Sequence record: NC_049462.1
Reading direction: 5' to 3' (one strand)
DNA from: Klebsiella phage Magnus
Length of the DNA stretch: 64,000 bases
This document shows, one piece after another, positions 51,049 to 59,364 of the stretch (position 1 is the stretch's first letter; every line of letters starts with the position of its first letter). Both the position numbers and the translations under genes were made by a program. A model generated the notes under the pieces. That model made no database searches. It saw only the letters and a list, made by a program, of their open reading frames with translations, and had not been told where the DNA came from.

Positions 51049-51444
51049 TTAGTTCAGGCAGATTTCTCGCCCCAGCGCAGTCAGGCGATAGAATTGGATC
51101 ACTTTCCCACGAGCATAGCGGTAATTGCCGTCAGGGGCGTCATGACCGCCATCATGGGTTACAGTAAACCAAGGCTCAATCAACCCTTTCTTGAGCAGAG
51201 ACTCCCCGGTTTGGGTATCCCAAGGATCACCCAGGACGTTGGTCAGATGCCGGCTCGGGGTAAAATTCCAAACGCGGACACCCTTTTCGTTCTTCCAGGA
51301 CTTGACACAGCGTTTTTCATGACGGCCATGACGAGTGAGGCGAACGCCGTCCTCAAAATTACGCATACCCAGCATATAATTCAATTGATGAGCCGTATAG
51401 CGAGGCCACTTTTGAGTTTTCACAACAGTATCTTTCGCTTTCAT
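51049..51444 (-). CDS. Hypothetical protein
   Basis: 131-aa ORF; His/Asp-rich C-terminus (VTHDGGHDAPDG). Confidence 0.4.
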   Translation of the reverse strand: MKAKDTVVKTQKWPRYTAHQLNYMLGMRNFEDGVRLTRHGRHEKRCVKSWKNEKGVRVWNFTPSRHLTNVLGDPWDTQTGESLLKKGLIEPWFTVTHDGGHDAPDGNYRYARGKVIQFYRLTALGREICLN

Positions 51445-51812
51445 AATATTCTCGCTCTTTCAAGGATGATTTCAACTTCACCCCAATCCACGAAGGGGCG
51501 CTTAGACATTGGGTCATAACTCAGAGGACAACCAAGAGCGGCATCGTCAATATACAATTGCGCATATGCTTTTGGTGAATCTGTCCATTCATGCTGTGTC
51601 GGATTCTTGTTGATACCATACAGCGGGATATCAAATGACTGGAACCAATCAACCGCTTCTTCAAGTTGTTTCCCGCTGCGCATGGTGAACAGAATCAGAA
51701 GATGATTTTTATCCACCAGCTTTTTTAGAACCTCTACAGCACCAATATGGCGTCCGATGAGAGGATATTCATGGGTAACACATGTCCCATCAAAATCGAT
51801 ACCGATTATCAT
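51441..51812 (-). CDS. Small HAD-superfamily phosphatase-like protein
   Basis: Motif I IGIDFDGTCV (DxDGT), later YIDDAALG (DD motif). Confidence 0.5.
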   Translation of the reverse strand: MIIGIDFDGTCVTHEYPLIGRHIGAVEVLKKLVDKNHLLILFTMRSGKQLEEAVDWFQSFDIPLYGINKNPTQHEWTDSPKAYAQLYIDDAALGCPLSYDPMSKRPFVDWGEVEIILERARIL

Positions 51813-51875: not shown

Positions 51876-52172
51876 TTACGGGGCTTCATCTTTATCAGAT
51901 TTATAAACTTCCCATCGGCCTATTCCACGCCATTCACCAAGATCGTTCCAGGTGCGAGTTCCTACCCAGCCACCAACTTCATAATAATGGCATATGCATG
52001 CCCAGAAGTCTTTGAAAGTTACTTTCCGAGTTGGTTTCACACATGCGATTTGCCAGCGGGTTAAGCTGATTGCCTGGAACAATGGATGGATATAATTGCT
52101 ATAGATCAAATATAACGCGATGAGCGCAATGCATCCCACAAATAACATACCGATAGCAGTGAAAACAAACAT
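51876..52172 (-). CDS. Small membrane protein
   Basis: TAATG overlap with dexA stop, AAGGTGGAA RBS; MFVFTAIGMLFVGCIALIALYLIY TM segment. Confidence 0.45.
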   Translation of the reverse strand: MFVFTAIGMLFVGCIALIALYLIYSNYIHPLFQAISLTRWQIACVKPTRKVTFKDFWACICHYYEVGGWVGTRTWNDLGEWRGIGRWEVYKSDKDEAP

Positions 52173-52801
52173 TATTCCACCTTTAATCCCATCAGATCTT
52201 CCATGGTTTTCTGGATGCGGAGCCAATCCAGCGCAGCATCATAACGAGGATCATGGTATACCATGCCTTCCAGTTCCCATGCCTTGATGCCGGCATAGCG
52301 ATCCATCTGGCCAACACCTTTCAGCCAGCTGACGATATCAAATGTGTGGTGATAATCCCACGGCTCATTGGAGTATTGCCCGCAGGTCACTTCAATGATA
52401 TGCTGGGCTTTACGCAGGTCGAATAGATTTCGATCACACCAGTCAACCGACCTGGGATCAACCCCCAGGCGATGACATCCTTTGCGAATTTCATCGGCCA
52501 GCTGATAGATGGAGATATCGTCTTCCTTTGGATACAGGCTGACTTCACGGGCGGCATCACATGGATTATATTTCCCGTTTCCCAGCCACCAGTCTACAGT
52601 CACTTTCTCTTTTACACGACCGAGGTCGATTTGCTCTTTGACATTCAATTTAATGAATGTGGTACGTTCTTCGACTAGTTGCTGGAGAGTATAACGTTTG
52701 GTCAAATCCGCTACTGTCTGCGCCCAGGATAACATAACAGCATCATCCCAGCGGCCCAGGGTTTCACTATCGGCGACCGCCAAAATATTTGATTTATACA
52801 T
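52172..52801 (-). CDS. dexA: DnaQ-like 3'-5' exonuclease (T4 DexA-like)
   Basis: Exo I ILAVADSET, Exo III YHDPRYDAALD; GGAGG RBS; about 209 aa like T4 DexA (227 aa). Confidence 0.6.
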   Translation of the reverse strand: MYKSNILAVADSETLGRWDDAVMLSWAQTVADLTKRYTLQQLVEERTTFIKLNVKEQIDLGRVKEKVTVDWWLGNGKYNPCDAAREVSLYPKEDDISIYQLADEIRKGCHRLGVDPRSVDWCDRNLFDLRKAQHIIEVTCGQYSNEPWDYHHTFDIVSWLKGVGQMDRYAGIKAWELEGMVYHDPRYDAALDWLRIQKTMEDLMGLKVE

Positions 52802-53399
52802 TGTTACCCTCCACCCGGATAATTTCTTCTTCAGAATCGACGACGTTGATATCATCATCCAGCGCGTTCAGATTTTCCATGTCTTCCGCAAACTTGTCTA
52901 CTTCCATGATGTAGAACACGGGGACAACCCGGCGGCGAGTGTCTTCATACAGGGTTTCAGCCAGCGCTTCCACCTGGCGGACAACGTCATACAGATTAAG
53001 ACCGCCGATACCACAACCGATAGCTGGCAGGCCGATATAGACCGTTTCAGAATCCTTCGCTTCCATAATCTCGTGAAGTTGTTCAAACATCACTTGTACA
53101 GAACTGATAACGGAAGGCATACGAGCATTTGGGCCTGTATAGAATTGAGTATACAGGTTGAAGCCCCAAACACCCGTGTCACGGTCAAAGGCATAAGACA
53201 TGCCACCGAGACGCTGCTCCGGCCCGCGCTCATCGTTCTGGTCTGCGCGCCAGACGTCAGGAAACCCCAGCCGAACGAAATTGGCGATACCCGCGCCCAT
53301 CACCGACCAGCAATTGGCGCCATGGGCGAATCCGTTAATAAGATTGAAACTTTTCGCGGCTTCCAACAAATTCCCACCACGAACGATATACGTTGTCAT
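52794..53399 (-). CDS. Macro-domain protein (ADP-ribose binding/hydrolysing)
   Basis: GNLLEAAKSFNLINGFAHGANCWSVMGAGIANFV (macro N-terminal Gly-rich loop) and TVYIGLPAIGCGIGGL (second Gly motif). Confidence 0.6.
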   Translation of the reverse strand: MTTYIVRGGNLLEAAKSFNLINGFAHGANCWSVMGAGIANFVRLGFPDVWRADQNDERGPEQRLGGMSYAFDRDTGVWGFNLYTQFYTGPNARMPSVISSVQVMFEQLHEIMEAKDSETVYIGLPAIGCGIGGLNLYDVVRQVEALAETLYEDTRRRVVPVFYIMEVDKFAEDMENLNALDDDINVVDSEEEIIRVEGNNV

Positions 53400-53629
53400 A
53401 CAATTCTTCTCCAGGTAATGTTGATGTCATCAATAAATTCAAGGCAAAAAACGCCGCCATGTCCTTCACTATTGTTGATGGACATGATAGATGTTCTCTC
53501 GTCGGTGGCGATAAGATTAACCCCAAACCCTTTGGACATCAAACGGAAAGCGATTTCTTTTGCGATCCGATTGAGATACGCAGGGGTGGTTGCCGGATCA
53601 AAATATTTTTCGAACTCAGGCATCACCAA
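53396..53629 (-). CDS. Hypothetical protein
   Basis: 77-aa ORF. Confidence 0.35.
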   Translation of the reverse strand: MVMPEFEKYFDPATTPAYLNRIAKEIAFRLMSKGFGVNLIATDERTSIMSINNSEGHGGVFCLEFIDDINITWRRIV

Positions 53630-53865
53630 TTCCCCTTCATCACGCTTTCCATTGCGTTTTCAGAAATATATTCGATGAAATCATTGTCGGACGCCATCTT
53701 CAACAACTCGAATAATTCACCACCGACGGCGCAACCAAACATCCCTTCTAACATTCCCTTCACGTTTTCATCGATTTCTTCTGGGTTTAATTCATATAAT
53801 TTCAAGCGACGTGAAATAGCCCGAAATTGCGCGATATCACCGGGTTCAAATTTGGCCATGGTCAT
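53623..53865 (-). CDS. Hypothetical protein
   Basis: 80-aa ORF. Confidence 0.35.
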   Translation of the reverse strand: MTMAKFEPGDIAQFRAISRRLKLYELNPEEIDENVKGMLEGMFGCAVGGELFELLKMASDNDFIEYISENAMESVMKGNW

Positions 53866-53908
53866 TTACCAGTTATGGGATTAGGCGGTAATAATACCGC
53901 CTTTTTAT

Positions 53909-54313
53909 TCAATAAAGGTCTTCGGAGAAAAGCTGGTTGAAAGGAGTATTCTTCAGACGAACTTGGTTGACTTGCCCGGCTTCTTTAGCGACGATCGCTG
54001 CCTCTTCACGAGTTAAGAAATTGCCTTGGTTGTCGATGAAACCCTGTTCACGGGTATGGGTTGTGGTAATGACCCCAGCTTCTTTTAGAATTCTTAACTG
54101 GGAATTCATCAATAGGCTGTGGTGACGATCAGCAACCACGATCACGTCACCATATTTGTTGGCTGCGGCCACGATACGGCGCTGCCATTCCCCTTCCTTG
54201 GGGAGGTCACGAGCGTACAGGGCAACCATTGTACCATCCGGGGTTCCTTTGACCTCAGAGAACAATCGTCCAGTGCCACCAGGGAGTTCACGGAAATAAC
54301 CAAGTAGTTTCAT
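53909..54313 (-). CDS. Hypothetical protein (ELPGGTG...FLTREEA motifs; possible Rossmann/SLOG-like nucleotide-processing fold)
   Basis: 134 aa; motifs YFRELPGGTGRLFSEV and GFIDNQGNFLTREEAAIVAKEAGQV; assignment tentative. Confidence 0.35.
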   Translation of the reverse strand: MKLLGYFRELPGGTGRLFSEVKGTPDGTMVALYARDLPKEGEWQRRIVAAANKYGDVIVVADRHHSLLMNSQLRILKEAGVITTTHTREQGFIDNQGNFLTREEAAIVAKEAGQVNQVRLKNTPFNQLFSEDLY

Positions 54314-54316
54314 AAT

Positions 54317-54631
54317 CTATTCAATCCATATTTCAGGTTCAGGAATATCGACCATATCCACAGTTTGATTTTTCAGATCGTGAAAACAGTCGCCAAGAAA
54401 TTGTATTTTTCCATTTGTCAAGAATAAATGACAGCGTGAGCCGGGGCTATCTTTAAACACCAATAGACTTGGAGTGAAAGTGGGTGCAACAACATCGTTG
54501 TTCCACTCCCAGATCGGGCCTTGTTCTGGAGAACCCTTCACGCGATATGGGTGAAGCATATTACAACCAGGACATTGAAAATATAAAGAATCACCCATAG
54601 ACAATAATTTTGAACTCAGGAATCTGCTCAT
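54317..54631 (-). CDS. Conserved Cys/His-cluster protein (CPGC...CH...DCxH)
   Basis: 104 aa with CPGCN, RCHLFL, DCFH motifs (putative metal binding). Confidence 0.4.
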   Translation of the reverse strand: MSRFLSSKLLSMGDSLYFQCPGCNMLHPYRVKGSPEQGPIWEWNNDVVAPTFTPSLLVFKDSPGSRCHLFLTNGKIQFLGDCFHDLKNQTVDMVDIPEPEIWIE

Positions 54632-54921
54632 CAGCTGTCCATCTCCTCATATGGATTGTAAGGGCGCAATTCCCCGATCAGTTTAGGCAACAAGGCGAAG
54701 CCGAACAGATTGAAGGAACGCATAGTGCCTACCATGACAACATCATCGTCTTCGTCAGTGATATCTTTCAAAGAACATATGGGGACATATGCGTCGAAAT
54801 CTTCACCTTCCCCTTCTTCTACAAGGGCGAATGCGACTTCTTCTGATATGAAGCGAGGGATGCATATGTCAAGCACCCAAGCAAGGAATACAAGAACGGA
54901 AATGCTGCGGAAATAGAACAT
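54631..54921 (-). CDS. Small acidic hypothetical protein
   Basis: 96-aa ORF, acidic (EEGEGEDFDAY, DEDDDVV). Confidence 0.35.
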   Translation of the reverse strand: MFYFRSISVLVFLAWVLDICIPRFISEEVAFALVEEGEGEDFDAYVPICSLKDITDEDDDVVMVGTMRSFNLFGFALLPKLIGELRPYNPYEEMDS

Positions 54922-54963
54922 ATTAAAGCCCTCGCAGGTGGCGGGGGCTTTTGGCCCCCTGTA

Positions 54964-56304
54964 TTATAGATCGAGCAGAGTTTCCAACTCGTCTAGATCT
55001 TCGTTGTAAAGATCTATGTCCTGTTTCTTATTTAACTCGTCCCGTTGAATTTCCAGATTCTTGATCTGATTCAACAGGCGCTCGCGGGCGTCCAATGTAA
55101 TCGAGGATAGAGACATCTTGAACAAATCGTCAAGATCACCATCAAAGTCCGGGTAGTCTGTCTGAAATAGTGCTTTCAATTCAGTCAAACTACGACGCAT
55201 ATCTGTCACAACTGCCCAACCAATAAACAGAGCACGATTGTTCATTTTGTGGATACGGGAGTTGAGGTCAGCCAACATATATTGGCGACGATCTTCATAC
55301 CGTTCCAGCCGATAGTTGAAGAATGCATACAGCATATCTTTCCAACCATTGAAACGTTGGATAATACCGCATTCGTTCCAGGATGTCCAGGTCGGCATTT
55401 CAGCTGAGTACAGCCGGAACATCTGTTCAACTTTGGCGTCATCCAGTTTAGACAATTCACCACGTTTGAACACAACAGTGATATCCCAACCATCTTCTGT
55501 GGAATCGTTGGAATACTCCGTGAGAATCCCTGATTTATACAGCGGAAGAATAATCTTGGTTTCATAATCTTTGGCGAACCAGCCCACCGGGACTTCAGTT
55601 ATGCGCAGGGTAGTGGCATTGAGACGTTCGTACACACCGCGACAGTACACTCGACCTTCCTCAGTGTACCCTGTTTCCCCCTTGTAACCATTCCAATACG
55701 GTTTCAAGTCATTTGGGTCTTCGCCACGGAGAAGCGCTCTCAGGGCATCCAGGACAGACTTTATGCTATGGCATGGGGTTTTGGTAGCATAGCCGCTACC
55801 GATACCGTTCAGACCATTCACAAGGAACATTGGGATAACCGGGAGGAAAAACTTTGGTTCCAGCCTTTCCTCACCAAGATAATTGTATTCCAGAATGCCT
55901 TCATCTTCTTTCCGATATATCTTACGAATCACGCCGGATACTGCCACAGAAATATATCGCGGTGATGACGCTTCTTTACCCATGATTGATCCGAACTGAC
56001 CATCACGATCAAAATACGGGATATTGTTCGTCCCTGGGAAAGCCTGTGCCATATTGACGATAGTGTTGCTCATATTCTCACCACCAGATTTGTAATTGGT
56101 ACGGGCGGCGGAAAACATACCCAGGCGGTCAACAATCTCTTCTTTACCGTATTCCAACGCAGCAAACAAAATTTTTCGCTGGCTGGGCTTGAGGCTGTCA
56201 ATTAACAGAGGAATTTGGCGAACGCTGTTAACAACCGAAAATTCCTTATGATCGGTGTTAACAAATGATGTCACAGTAATGCTTTTGGCAACCATCTTAT
56301 TCAT
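54964..56304 (-). CDS. gp52: DNA topoisomerase II medium subunit gp52 (GyrA-like breakage-reunion domain)
   Basis: LKPSQRKILF, catalytic-Tyr region, FGS motif; start taken at MNKM (56304) just after gp39 stop (track ORF extends to 56379 by overlapping). Confidence 0.75.
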   Translation of the reverse strand: MNKMVAKSITVTSFVNTDHKEFSVVNSVRQIPLLIDSLKPSQRKILFAALEYGKEEIVDRLGMFSAARTNYKSGGENMSNTIVNMAQAFPGTNNIPYFDRDGQFGSIMGKEASSPRYISVAVSGVIRKIYRKEDEGILEYNYLGEERLEPKFFLPVIPMFLVNGLNGIGSGYATKTPCHSIKSVLDALRALLRGEDPNDLKPYWNGYKGETGYTEEGRVYCRGVYERLNATTLRITEVPVGWFAKDYETKIILPLYKSGILTEYSNDSTEDGWDITVVFKRGELSKLDDAKVEQMFRLYSAEMPTWTSWNECGIIQRFNGWKDMLYAFFNYRLERYEDRRQYMLADLNSRIHKMNNRALFIGWAVVTDMRRSLTELKALFQTDYPDFDGDLDDLFKMSLSSITLDARERLLNQIKNLEIQRDELNKKQDIDLYNEDLDELETLLDL

Positions 56305-58207
56305 CCTCTGTTTCAAACAAGCAAACGTCACTAAACCAGGTCTTGCGGTAATCCGACGCCTTATCACCGAACCCATCATTCAATGAATTCTTGTAGGCAT
56401 CATCCAGAACGACCGTCGTAGTATACGCATCCAGATTGTTTAGAATACGTTTGAAATCTTCGGTGCTGTTACCACCCAGACCTTTTAGATATTTCTTCTT
56501 TGTGATCTTTTTAGATTCTGGGGTCTTCATGAACTCTTCATATTCGGCGTTGTTCATGAATTCATGCATGGTGTTACCACACCACACGCGCATGTACGGG
56601 GAGCGCAGAAGTTTAAGACGCCCCTGGCGCACATATTCCGGCCAGAACGTACAGTACATGGTAATCAACAGGCCACGGATATGAATGCCGTCATCGTCCG
56701 CGTCCGTAGCGACAACCGTGCAAGGATAACGGCTGGTGTCAATAGGTTGCCCCGGTACTGCGCCGCCGTGGATAGTACACAGGTTCTTGAATTCTTCGTT
56801 GGCCATGACCTTGGCGCGCGAAGCGTTCAAACAGTTGATGAATTTACCGCGCAGAGGAAACAGACCGATTTTCTTGGTGTCACGGGCATTGAGGATAGGG
56901 TTAGACGCGCTATCACCCTCGGTCAACACCAGTACGCAGCCTGAACGATCACCACGGGCCGTCGCTGGATAATACTTTTCAATTTCACGATAATCCCGTT
57001 TAGTGATTTCCTTTTTGGCCTTTTCAAACTCAGCGTCATCCTGGTCATTACGCAGAGCCGCCAGTTCCTTACCCAACCCGATGGTAACATATTCCAGCGC
57101 CTTACGAATCAGGCGGTCAGACGGTTTGTATGTTGTCCCAAATTGGCTGACGGGAGTGGTCATGCGCTCTTTAGTCTGACTATCAAACCGGGGGTTATCG
57201 ATGTCAGCAGATATGAAAAGCATCATATGGTTCTTGATCATTGCTGGCTTCAATTCTGTCTTGAATTTTTTAGACAGCGGAGTACGAATCGCAGCAACGA
57301 TCTGGTCGGCAACATAGTCAACATGCGGGCCGCCGACGTGAGTAGCGATACTGTTGACATATGACGCATGCATGAACGTACCGTTCGAAGGCGCGATAGC
57401 AACAGACCAATCCCCTGATTCGTCTACAGATGAACCCTGGCAGAAGTAATCCACAAAATGACCAAAGCGATCAATCCGGATAGGCTTGCCATTGAGAACG
57501 ATCTTCAGACGAGGGTTACACGCCGCTACTTCAAATGCCCGGCGGTAGATCATCAGCAGATTATTGTTATCCAGACCTTTAATGCCCAGACGCTCATAAT
57601 CTGGGATCCAGGCGATGGTCGTACCCGGCGCGTTCAGGTTACTGATCGTCGGCTCTGAACGTTTGCTCATATTGTTCTCAAACGTCTGGAGATAAGACTT
57701 CTTGCCGTCGTTGGTAGACACCCGGAACCATTTTGAGAATACGTTTACGAGAGAAGCGCCTTCGCCGTTCTGGCCACCGGATTTCTTGTTGTTGTACTCT
57801 TCGTCGTCATCGTTGAAGTTACTACCAGCATACAGGGAGCCGAAGAGCATCTCCGGGAGCCATTCTTTGGTCTCACCGTGTTTTACCACAGGGATGCCGC
57901 CGTTGTCAGCAACGATGATCTGGCCGTTCATCGCCATTACCGTAACAGTGATCTCGTTGAGGCGTTTCCCCTCAGGAGTTTTGCTATGGTCAACACAGTT
58001 CGTGATAATCTCATCGAACTGTTTGATCAGCGCCGGGGAATAGGTAAAGTTGTCTTTGAATACAACCTGATCTTTTACCGGGTCATAAACCCAAACCGTC
58101 CCGGATGTTGAACGGATACTACCCAGATGGCGTTCTGGGCGAAGAAGGATATGCTCTACATGGGAGAGCTTCTTGTACTTTCTTTCAATGTTAACGTTAC
58201 TGGTCAT
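56297..58207 (-). CDS. gp39: DNA topoisomerase II large subunit, fused gp39+gp60 (GyrB-like ATPase + TOPRIM)
   Basis: GHKL ATPase motifs (LSHVEHILLRPERHLGS, ADNGGIPV), TOPRIM EGDSA; 636 aa consistent with non-split gp39/60 as in T4 relatives lacking the gene 60 bypass. Confidence 0.85.
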   Translation of the reverse strand: MTSNVNIERKYKKLSHVEHILLRPERHLGSIRSTSGTVWVYDPVKDQVVFKDNFTYSPALIKQFDEIITNCVDHSKTPEGKRLNEITVTVMAMNGQIIVADNGGIPVVKHGETKEWLPEMLFGSLYAGSNFNDDDEEYNNKKSGGQNGEGASLVNVFSKWFRVSTNDGKKSYLQTFENNMSKRSEPTISNLNAPGTTIAWIPDYERLGIKGLDNNNLLMIYRRAFEVAACNPRLKIVLNGKPIRIDRFGHFVDYFCQGSSVDESGDWSVAIAPSNGTFMHASYVNSIATHVGGPHVDYVADQIVAAIRTPLSKKFKTELKPAMIKNHMMLFISADIDNPRFDSQTKERMTTPVSQFGTTYKPSDRLIRKALEYVTIGLGKELAALRNDQDDAEFEKAKKEITKRDYREIEKYYPATARGDRSGCVLVLTEGDSASNPILNARDTKKIGLFPLRGKFINCLNASRAKVMANEEFKNLCTIHGGAVPGQPIDTSRYPCTVVATDADDDGIHIRGLLITMYCTFWPEYVRQGRLKLLRSPYMRVWCGNTMHEFMNNAEYEEFMKTPESKKITKKKYLKGLGGNSTEDFKRILNNLDAYTTTVVLDDAYKNSLNDGFGDKASDYRKTWFSDVCLFETEDE

Positions 58208-58255
58208 CTTCCTATCCCGTCAATGTAAACACACAAGATTATGTATGGGATTGGC

Positions 58256-58882
58256 TTATAGACCAAATTTGCCCCGCCACTTTTCGACTTTGTGATCAAA
58301 TGCGTGCTCAACTTTTATTCTAATCGATGACGGTTCTGCACAATGATAATACGTTCTTCCTTCATCAGTCCCATATTGAGGGGCGCAACCGTATGACAAT
58401 GCCAATTGAGCTGTGTATCTGATTAAAGTGCTCACCAGGAAGTTTAAATTATCGGTAGATCTTTGTGGCTGGTTTAGCAATCTGGTGATACGCCCTTTCA
58501 TATGATGGATCATAGCTAAATTCTTTTCTGGCCCTGTGGTGGTATCACAGAAAAGGTGGTCTTCAAGGGAATATTGGCGGAAATCAGAATATCCTTGCGC
58601 CGATGCCATTTGTGTAATAATTGAATCAATAATTTCATCTTTCGTCATATTACCATGGATTTGTGCATCTTTGTAATCGCAGACATACAAAAGATCAACT
58701 GCTGAGATAATCACGTCAGCTATTTCTCCATTGAGTGGTTCTGAAGCTGCGATGCCGTGGTAAACATCGGAAAGTTCACATACTTCTTCCACCAGTTTAC
58801 AGAAGACGAAAAATGGAGAACGATCTGGATTGACCGCAGTACATTCATATGACGTATTGACGATATTACGCAGAAATTTCAT
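58256..58882 (-). CDS. Second MazG-like NTP pyrophosphohydrolase
   Basis: LVEEVCELSDVYHG...EIADVIISAVDLLYVC typical MazG EExxE...ExxD helices. Confidence 0.55.
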   Translation of the reverse strand: MKFLRNIVNTSYECTAVNPDRSPFFVFCKLVEEVCELSDVYHGIAASEPLNGEIADVIISAVDLLYVCDYKDAQIHGNMTKDEIIDSIITQMASAQGYSDFRQYSLEDHLFCDTTTGPEKNLAMIHHMKGRITRLLNQPQRSTDNLNFLVSTLIRYTAQLALSYGCAPQYGTDEGRTYYHCAEPSSIRIKVEHAFDHKVEKWRGKFGL

Positions 58883-59364
58883 TTCAAATATCCTTCTAGG
58901 CGGAAGCGGTTGATATGCTGTATGATAAAGTCCATAGAGTTTTGAAAACTATATTTTCCCTGATGTTCATATGCATGTATCAGGGGAAGGCGGCTGTGGG
59001 CTAATTGGAAACGCAGCTTGGGCGGCATCGTAAGCAATTTTTGGCTTGTTGCTGCAATGATGTCACGTTTAAATTTGGGGTCATCAGGAGACAGAACGAC
59101 AATCTGCGACTTGGCCAGAGTCTGACCGAATTGTTTGGCATCATTTCCATAAAGGATACGCAGGTCATCGTGCCGATATTTGAGCCAATACCAGTAGCCT
59201 TCCATCGAGTTGAAAACACCATCGACAGTATCCATGGGATGGTATGCAAAATGAGACAGGAATCTCCCCAGCTCGGTGCGGCTCCGACTGTAAATGTTGT
59301 AATGTGTCTTGCCTTCATCATCCGGCGTCATACGATCTTTTGGAACATTGAGTAATAGGAACAT
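58879..59364 (-). CDS. NADAR (YbiA-like, DUF1768) domain protein
   Basis: HYNIYSRSRTELGRFLSHFAYHP...DGVFNSMEGYWYWLKY matches the YbiA core INFYS..YGDFSNFA...DG..W.TSEHYFQAQKF. Confidence 0.55.
   Translation of the reverse strand: MFLLLNVPKDRMTPDDEGKTHYNIYSRSRTELGRFLSHFAYHPMDTVDGVFNSMEGYWYWLKYRHDDLRILYGNDAKQFGQTLAKSQIVVLSPDDPKFKRDIIAATSQKLLTMPPKLRFQLAHSRLPLIHAYEHQGKYSFQNSMDFIIQHINRFRLEGYLK

Follow-up and report, generated by a model that had tools for sequence, protein, structure and literature searches.

The joint presence of AdfN and AdfM has already been demonstrated in bacteriophage T4 (PMC11257639; bioRxiv 10.1101/2025.11.20.689424), and the idea of a dual protection against DarT toxins is not new: dual carriage and mechanism are already established in T4, and the locus described here brings no new concept in this regard. 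AdfN, which is T4 gp30.3, counteracts DarTG1, and its E36 and K43 alanine mutants are inactive. In vivo it is effective only during infection by Tevenvirinae, and its activity can therefore depend on context (PMC11257639 / PMC11825919); when no phage is present, AdfN does not restore growth to cells exposed to the toxin. The AdfM of T4 is Tk.4; deletion of tk.4 sensitises the phage to DarTG2, a so far purely genetic result that is available as a preprint (bioRxiv 10.1101/2025.11.20.689424). A further AdfM, gp104 of phage PhiKZ, takes the ADP-ribose (ADPr) added by DarT2 off DNA (PMC13309987). Among bacterial macrodomains, SCO6735 cleaves ADP-ribosylated thymidine on DNA, and the Gln that it holds at the position of DarG K80 is essential (PMC9411070). 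A literature search yielded no paper tying Ackermannviridae phages to DarTG, macro or NADAR proteins; a Migulavirinae preprint was set aside because the term "macro" refers there to the host protein ThsA, as was a Klebsiella phage preprint in which DarTG is confined to the reference list.

The window, that is, the whole stretch of DNA analysed here, comprises 64,000 nucleotides of Klebsiella phage Magnus (NC_049462.1), a Taipeivirus-like member of the Ackermannviridae, the Taipeivirus Klebsiella phages being 97-98% identical. The two ORFs described in the initial annotation, here termed ORF A and ORF B, are both present with the boundaries listed in Table 1, are full length in comparison with their respective families, and lie in the minus-strand array on the rIIA/rIIB side, which also holds DNA-metabolism genes. 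The reading that we consider reasonably probable is that the phage encodes two unrelated, stand-alone ADP-ribosylglycohydrolases, which would serve as "orphan antitoxins" when the host defends itself by DarTG-mediated abortive infection.

Table 1. Genes of the minus-strand array at and around the two candidate ADP-ribose erasers; positions are those of the window.
Feature	Position	Strand	Assignment and evidence
DexA-like exonuclease	52172..52858	minus	phrog_255 E 2e-53; annotation in XDRKpn-1
ORF A	52794..53399	minus	201 aa; stand-alone macrodomain, DarG/TARG1 (ALC1-like) class, AdfM (T4 Tk.4) family
DUF7234 small ORF	53396..53629	minus	Pfam PF23881 E 8.6e-33
Topoisomerase II medium subunit	54964-56379 (longest ORF)	minus	ORF list and annotations in relatives
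Topoisomerase II large subunit	56297-58207	minus	ORF list and annotations in relatives
MazG-like pyrophosphatase	58256..58882	minus	phrog_1247 E 4.4e-37
ORF B	58879..59364	minus	161 aa; core-only NADAR-fold protein, phage (gp30.3/AdfN) type

ORF A displays the three-layer alpha/beta/alpha macro fold together with the two Gly-rich ADP-ribose-binding loops, and within the macrodomain superfamily it belongs to the DarG/TARG1 (ALC1-like) class, its nearest relatives in both sequence and structure being DarG, TARG1, SCO6735, BT1257 and Poa1p. The best match by structure and by profile is the DarG2 macrodomain (M. tuberculosis 5m3i, T. aquaticus 5m31), with the family profile of ORF A matching DarG structures at E 9e-14 and SCO6735 at E 2.8e-9. 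Among phage proteins, BLASTP aligns ORF A with T4 Tk.4 at 35% identity (E 9e-18), and the two share phrog_335 (both at about E 1e-65) with PhiKZ gp104, an orphan DarG2-like macrodomain that is only 18% identical to ORF A. The recognizable motifs are H26-G-A-N29-C, M34-G-A-G-I-A, N81-L-Y-T-Q85 and P125-A-I-G-C-G-I-G-G-L, which correspond to the AHGxNC, MGxGxA, FNLYTQ and PxIGxGIG motifs of Tk.4. As a stand-alone phage macrodomain homologous to Tk.4 and matching it in its active-site motifs, ORF A falls into the AdfM family, and the macro-domain claim of the initial annotation is thereby borne out by the DarG profile match, phrog_335 and the identity to Tk.4.

Membership in DarG2 proper is a different matter. 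ORF A and DarG2 have the same GxGxGGL-type loop 2 and the conserved Asn of loop 1; however, the catalytic lysine of DarG2 (K80 in T. aquaticus) is replaced in ORF A by Gln85, and neither a C-terminal DarT-binding domain nor an adjacent darT gene was found, the protein having only 201 aa and being flanked by the DUF7234 and DexA-like genes. Because the DarT-binding domain is missing, ORF A remains far below the cut-off of the NCBIfam DarG equivalog model (40.8 bits versus 250, over positions 5-137 of 338). The invariant Gln85 aligns with "PTKK" of DarG and "ITKK" of TARG1, and the same Gln, within the shared FNLYTQ motif, replaces the DarG lysine in T4 Tk.4, whereas PhiKZ AdfM retains a DarG-type "FPTK" lysine where ORF A reads "LYTQ". 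The absence of the lysine could suggest a catalytically dead "reader" macrodomain, an idea that was rejected since the corresponding Gln of SCO6735 is essential and the functional Tk.4 carries it as well. SCO6735 (Streptomyces coelicolor, 5e3b) resembles ORF A in its DarG/TARG1 class and in the Gln at the catalytic-lysine position, an equivalence drawn through DarG and TARG1, and differs from it in being bacterial, linked to DNA damage and equipped with a long mobile loop. Judged from sequence, ORF A would represent a further case of a Gln-type, lysine-independent active site among DarG-class macrodomains.

Beyond these common features, ORF A diverges from its described relatives in size and surroundings. 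It exceeds the 155 aa of Tk.4, and its conserved C-terminal tail (residues 166-201; 36 aa, 13 Asp/Glu, pI 4.05) is absent from Tk.4, PhiKZ AdfM and the DarG macrodomains. Tk.4 adjoins vs and tk.3, in contrast with the DUF7234 and DexA neighbours of ORF A, and PhiKZ AdfM enters a phage nucleus by import, whereas no such nucleus is known for Ackermannviridae.

For ORF B, sequence comparison is far less informative, and its assignment relies on structure and on phage-specific profiles. The scans with Pfam and NCBIfam gave nothing relevant, the sole match being a spurious one to Methyltransf_4 (E 0.021), and neither PF08719 (NADAR) nor PF08010 (Phage_30_3) was matched in Pfam; just one of 20 members of the ORF B family reaches PF08719, at E 6e-4. 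Since the experimentally validated T4 AdfN likewise lacks a PF08719 match, this model is insensitive for phage NADARs. PADLOC models missed ORF B and also the positive control, T4 AdfN, and for that reason cannot judge NADAR membership. Searches of PDB sequences returned only noise with phmmer (cytochrome P450, E > 1) and zero matches with the family profile, so the assignment required a structural model. The latter shows the fold of the NADAR superfamily, a helical core between two small beta-hairpins, with YbiA as the best structural match and 133 of the 161 residues aligning to NADAR structures. At the profile level, homology to T4 gp30.3 is provided by phrog_652, which is matched by ORF B at E 1.5e-55 (profile positions 112-273) and by gp30.3 at E 9.2e-51 (positions 126-272) over a shared region; the direct pairwise relationship is remote (hhalign probability 74%, with 24% identity in the alignment).

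The candidate catalytic residues of ORF B are E55, K62 and H130. The first two are equivalent to E36 and K43 of AdfN, with the identical spacing of seven residues, and the same Glu or Glu-Lys pair is known from PnNADAR (E43) and E. coli C7 (E88/K95); within the ORF B family E55 is invariant, while distant members have S, G or Y at the position of K62. The invariant H130 aligns with the catalytic Glu in the "LVEH" motif of YbiA by both MAFFT and hhalign, and the His of T4 AdfN (H123) stands one column off in automated alignments. This third position separates the NADAR types: it is Glu in E. coli YbiA (2b3w), Asp in DarG1 (8bat) and His in ORF B, which, like gp30.3, is a core-only phage NADAR with a His near the last beta-hairpin in place of Glu or Asp. 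Nor does ORF B possess the N-terminal extension or the adjacent darT1 gene of DarG1, the DarT1-associated NADAR, and it is accordingly of the phage type and not a YbiA or DarG1 representative. The NADAR claim of the initial annotation is upheld by the modelled fold, the E55/K62/H130 set and the phrog_652 region shared with gp30.3; for both proteins, fold and profile evidence confirm the domain assignment. The catalytic positions of both ORFs are intact.

The surroundings of the two genes provide context. The start of ORF A overlaps the stop of the DUF7234 ORF by 4 nt and its 3' end is overlapped by the DexA-like exonuclease gene, by 8 nt if the start annotated in relatives (52801) is adopted. 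ORF B is flanked by a 63-aa ORF and by the MazG-like gene, whose start codon shares nucleotides with the stop codon of ORF B (ATGA), and because of this overlap the two are probably co-translated. The MazG-like pyrophosphatase is a neighbour of ORF B, and a functional tie between them is putative only; in Erwinia phage Bue1 the MazG-like gene is missing from the interval between NADAR and topoisomerase II. The topoisomerase II genes (54964..58207) stand between ORF A and ORF B and are likewise regarded as context only. Both ORF A and ORF B are conserved, at syntenic locations, in another Ackermannviridae genus, and the order of the genes is maintained between genera of the family. A scan for promoters and terminators returned weak consensus matches only, 31 versus 20 expected by chance.

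According to the proposed mechanism, both genes would be expressed early in infection. ORF A would most likely strip the ADP-ribose that DarT2 places on the N3 of thymidine from single-stranded phage DNA, by a Gln-dependent and lysine-independent chemistry as in SCO6735, and ORF B would most likely remove the DarT1-made ADP-ribose from the N2 of guanine by means of Glu55, Lys62 and His130. Replicating phage DNA would in this way be cleaned, and replication could go on in hosts that carry DarTG. The dual anti-DarT reading, already put forward in the initial annotation, receives support from homology, each protein belonging to the PHROG of a validated T4 counter-defence protein.

Other roles for the pair can be envisaged. 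Both enzymes might mainly act on soluble ADP-ribose derivatives (TIR/Thoeris-type signals, ADPr-1''-phosphate or toxic metabolites) instead of modified DNA, in which case NAD-based signalling immunity would be blunted or ADP-ribose fed into the reconstitution of NAD+. This is rather unlikely: the experimentally tested family members (Tk.4, PhiKZ gp104 and gp30.3) counter DarTG and target ADP-ribosylated DNA, every NADAR family tested hydrolyses base-linked ADPr, and no assay reports these families acting on immune signals. Alternatively, the two proteins may be broad nucleic-acid erasers directed against toxins other than DarT (pierisin/ScARP-like, YarT-like or acting on phosphate ends), with substrates such as guanine or cytidine ADPr in RNA or DNA and ADPr attached to the terminal phosphates of either nucleic acid, and with DarTG being at most one target. 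Such breadth would agree with the removal of guanosine ADPr from RNA by NADARs including the T4 enzyme (PMC11833690), with the cleavage of cytidine ADPr by some NADARs and the several linkages handled by TARG1-class macrodomains (PMC12945103 and its table), and with the existence of an ART-YbiA pair unrelated to DarT. However, the Gln-type relative SCO6735 is inactive on 5'-phosphate ADPr, the known in vivo phenotypes of both phage families are DarTG-specific, and no toxin of this kind is known as a phage defence of Enterobacteriaceae, which makes this alternative improbable.

Housekeeping functions have a very low probability. ORF B would in that case be a YbiA-like N-glycosidase for riboflavin intermediates, as its top structural match and the label "N-glycosidase" of one jumbo-phage homologue could suggest, and ORF A a Poa1p-like ADPr-1''-phosphatase dealing with by-products of tRNA repair, in line with the former annotation of Tk.4 as an A1pp phosphatase. 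However, the Glu that defines the YbiA family is a His in ORF B, a DarTG2 phenotype has meanwhile been described for Tk.4, and the annotation of the close relative FKP10 lists neither an RNA ligase nor a Tpt1/KptA gene, be it near these genes or in the rest of the genome. It is most improbable that the pair reverses or tunes modifications made by Alt/ModA/ModB-type transferases of the phage itself, an option raised in the initial annotation for which the location of T4 gene 30.3 some 3 kb from alt might speak, as the 159-kb FKP10 genome contains no annotated ADP-ribosyltransferase (ART), which does not prove absence because more than half of its genes are hypothetical. The FKP10 "anti-CRISPR" gene, considered as a candidate ART, encodes a Phage_gp49_66 family protein.

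A separate proposal concerns the acidic tail of ORF A, which might constitute a second neutralisation module, for example a DNA mimic or a DarT-binding element comparable to the DarT-binding domain of DarG, with the Ackermannviridae versions specialised for DNA with hypermodified thymidine. The DNA of ViI-like phages contains hypermodified thymidine, whereas that of T4 contains hydroxymethyl-C, and the former modification might already alter targeting by DarT2. The proposal is improbable; if it held true, enzymatic and stoichiometric inhibition would be combined in one small protein.

Should the preferred reading as paired anti-DarT erasers be correct, the T4-type macro and NADAR counter-defence pair would appear conserved and vertically inherited in a second large family of myoviruses, and ViI-like phages of Klebsiella, Salmonella, E. 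coli, Dickeya and Erwinia would be predicted to resist both DarTG1 and DarTG2. Several ViI-like phages are in use or proposed for therapy or biocontrol, and such predicted resistance bears on the prediction of their host range. At the level of annotation, ORF A could be renamed as an AdfM-like macrodomain and ORF B as an AdfN-like NADAR protein. Current labels for ORF A are mostly "phosphatase" or "hypothetical protein", whereas for the ORF B homologue most of the listed Ackermannviridae records give "hypothetical protein" and FKP10 gives "virion structural protein".

ORF A and ORF B encode, respectively, a macrodomain protein of the DarG/TARG1 class belonging to the AdfM family and a phage-type NADAR protein of the AdfN family, AdfM and AdfN being the macrodomain and NADAR types of phage anti-DarT factors (Tk.4 and gp30.3 in T4). 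The initial annotation had placed both domains at coordinates that agree exactly with the ORF list of the window, and the two assignments taken jointly can be regarded as very nearly certain, with fold, family membership and residues directly observed. Pfam by itself is not enough to settle either of them. In the case of ORF A, the two Gly-rich loops ascribed to a macro domain are present (MGAGIA and IGCGIGGL) and the anticipated match to Pfam Macro is seen, but its 15.1 bits fall under the gathering score of 22. The NCBIfam antitoxin_DarG and PADLOC DarG models match with E-values of 1.6e-10 and 2.1e-10, phmmer retrieves the DarG macrodomain structures 5m3i and 5m31 (E 8.5e-5), and a family profile built from 31 sequences finds the structures of DarG (8.8e-14), TARG1 (~4e-11), SCO6735 (2.8e-9), BT1257 (1.2e-8) and Poa1p (4.6e-8). 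The AlphaFold model is confident (pLDDT 94.6). A role as a DarG antitoxin is excluded for ORF A, which has neither a DarT-binding domain nor a neighbouring darT.

Among validated AdfMs, T4 Tk.4 is 35% identical to ORF A (E 9e-18) and shares with it the motifs AHGxNC, MGxGxA, FNLYTQ and PxIGxGIG. Knockout of tk.4 renders T4 sensitive to DarTG2, hence the name AdfM (bioRxiv 10.1101/2025.11.20.689424), and PhiKZ gp104, likewise an AdfM, takes DarT2-made ADP-ribose off DNA in vitro (PMC13309987). The three also have a match to phrog_335 in common (ORF A 6.5e-65, Tk.4 1.3e-65, gp104 8.2e-43). In ORF A, an invariant glutamine, Q85 in NLYTQ, aligns with the catalytic lysine of DarG (K80) and TARG1 (K84). 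This was dropped as an objection to hydrolase activity, since Streptomyces coelicolor SCO6735 also carries a glutamine there (Gln85) and is an efficient hydrolase of ADPr-thymidine made by DarT, an activity abolished in its Q85A and Q85E mutants (PMC9411070). The protein ends in a 36-residue acidic tail (residues 166-201; 13 Asp/Glu, 2 Lys/Arg, pI 4.05), modelled with high confidence and kept in Ackermannviridae homologues, which T4 Tk.4, PhiKZ AdfM and DarG macrodomains lack and which could repay further study.

For ORF B, the NADAR N-terminal core is recognizable (IYS, GRFLSHFA, DG, SMEGY and K62), although the literal string proposed for it was not matched, and the suggested check against Pfam NADAR (PF08719) gave no match; nor did sequence searches of Pfam, NCBIfam and PDB return any NADAR match. 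T4 AdfN has no Pfam NADAR match either, which explains why ORF B is missed by that model. Within the family alignment (n=20), one member matches Pfam NADAR (E 6e-4) and another Phage_30_3 (E 0.0026), one metagenomic relative bears the JGI label "YbiA/DUF1768", and hhalign links the family to E. coli YbiA (probability 88%) and T4 gp30.3 (74%). The decisive evidence is the predicted structure (pLDDT 94.1), for which Foldseek against PDB finds YbiA as the sole credible match (probability 1.00, TM 0.62, 156 columns). Within phrog_652, the matches of ORF B (1.5e-55) and T4 gp30.3 (9.2e-51) cover one and the same region. T4 gp30.3 is AdfN, which takes ADP-ribose off DNA; T4 requires it to resist DarTG1, and it also suffices for that resistance (PMC11257639). 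Phage NADARs have been described as core-only domains, with which the 161 residues of ORF B are consistent.

Regarding the catalytic positions, E55 is invariant across the ORF B family and K62 follows it by seven residues, the same spacing as in T4 AdfN (E36/K43) and E. coli C7 (E88/K95); alanine mutants of T4 E36 and K43 lose function. NADAR families differ at the third catalytic position, where YbiA has Glu, DarG1 has Asp and phage NADARs have His. In the C-terminal alignments, which are of low confidence, the invariant H130 of ORF B shares a column with the YbiA Glu in LVEH, and H123, the T4 His, is one column off. K62, equivalent to the essential K43, is kept in close relatives, whereas more distant ones, including Erwinia phage phiEa2809-type and metagenomic sequences, have Arg, Ser, Tyr or Gly there; R69 and K77, by contrast, are invariant; this variation could also repay further study.

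The substrates, the role in vivo and the time of expression are inferred. On phage DNA, ORF A would most likely remove by hydrolysis the ADP-ribose that DarT2 attaches to thymidine, and ORF B that which DarT1 attaches to guanine. As orphan antitoxins, the two would let replication continue in DarTG hosts. This functional reading, founded on homology to the validated T4 pair and on intact active sites, seems fairly probable. It is possible that both enzymes are adapted to hypermodified-thymidine DNA. It is also possible that they act on broader or different nucleic-acid targets, as NADARs also process RNA guanosine ADPr and some of them cytidine ADPr. A less likely reading, older than the AdfN and AdfM experiments, is that the two enzymes mainly process soluble ADP-ribose derivatives. 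A metabolic role for ORF B like that of YbiA is unlikely despite the shared fold, since ORF B has His rather than the Glu that defines the YbiA family. The alternative raised initially, reversal of modifications made by the phage's own ADP-ribosyltransferases, finds no support, as none is annotated in the whole genome of the close relative FKP10 (a negative softened by its many hypothetical genes) and its "anti-CRISPR" gene is not such an enzyme.

Both genes lie in a minus-strand array (see table), and the 8-kb stretch around them is 97-98% identical to Klebsiella phages vB_KpnS_MDA2066, XDRKpn-1, 0507-KN2-1 and FKP10, the last classified in Ackermannviridae, genus Taipeivirus. The close packing of these genes and the overlap of their ends suggest translational coupling within operons. 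Two conserved small ORFs occupy the interval between the macrodomain and topoisomerase II genes. The PHROGs label of a further ORF of 123 residues is probably misleading, its match being to the NCBIfam BT0820-family HAD-type phosphatase (E 5.9e-25, under the family cut-off).

Features of the minus-strand array in the window
Feature	Position	Strand	Remarks
Array order, part 1		-	rIIA/rIIB, histone-like protein, ORF B, MazG-like pyrophosphatase, two topoisomerase II subunits
Array order, part 2 (after topoisomerase II)		-	several small ORFs, ORF A, DexA-like exonuclease, dCMP deaminase
ORF B	58879-59364	-	161 aa
ORF B K62 codon	~59179-59181	-
MazG-like start/ORF B stop overlap	58879-58882	-	ATGA
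DUF6527 protein	54317-54631	-	104 aa; E 5.5e-13
phrog_839 protein	53909-54313	-	134 aa; "tRNA processing enzyme" in some records, without profile support here
ORF A	52794-53399	-	201 aa
DUF7234 ORF stop/ORF A start overlap	53396-53399	-	4 nt
ORF A acidic tail	52794-52901	-
DexA-like exonuclease start inside ORF A 3' end	52794-52858	-
123-aa ORF	51441-51812	-	"phosphoheptose isomerase" (phrog_1238)

With tblastn, ORF A-like proteins, mostly labelled "phosphatase", were found in 2,646 of 50,697 phage records, among them T4-like, Felixounavirus-like, Vequintavirus-like, PB1-like and other phages. For ORF B the count is 562 records, from Ackermannviridae, jumbo phages and Vibrio phages of ~158 kb. 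Most of the listed ORF B homologues are labelled "hypothetical protein"; phrog_652 is of unknown function class, and the FKP10 homologue (129981-130466) is called "virion structural protein". A survey paper describes NADAR and Macro proteins as often packaged in myovirus virions. Orphan NADAR (AdfN) and macrodomain (AdfM) counter-defences, both together in T4, are already published or in preprint. In the literature searched, carriage of such a pair by Ackermannviridae as conserved genes appears to be unreported; it is of use for annotation and host-range prediction and will not surprise a specialist.

Erwinia phage Bue1, of another Ackermannviridae genus, keeps the order histone-like, NADAR, topoisomerase II, macro and DexA, so both have been inherited within the family and are not recent gains. 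Each protein is full length relative to its own family, a relevant point given that RB69 AdfN is inactivated by the loss of 15 C-terminal residues. Compared with Kuttervirus-type Salmonella/Escherichia phages, ORF B is ~94% identical and ORF A only ~72%, and the macrodomain thus diverges much faster than the NADAR protein, a difference between genera that could merit study. In Escherichia phage Cba120 (NC_016570.1 7414-7895), the ORF B homologue aligns in two pieces (91.7% identity), which could reflect a frameshift or indel in that copy.

Beyond the window, whose positions equal FKP10 positions minus 71150, FKP10 (PP974338.1) carries adjoining Prs-like and NAMPT-like genes (56289-58792), the former with Pribosyltran and Pribosyltran_N domains and the latter with a NAPRTase domain (E 2.6e-32). 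The pair resembles NARP1, a phage pathway of NAD+ reconstitution reported by Osterman et al. (2024); if so, it would provide this lineage with a third counter-defence linked to NAD/ADP-ribose.
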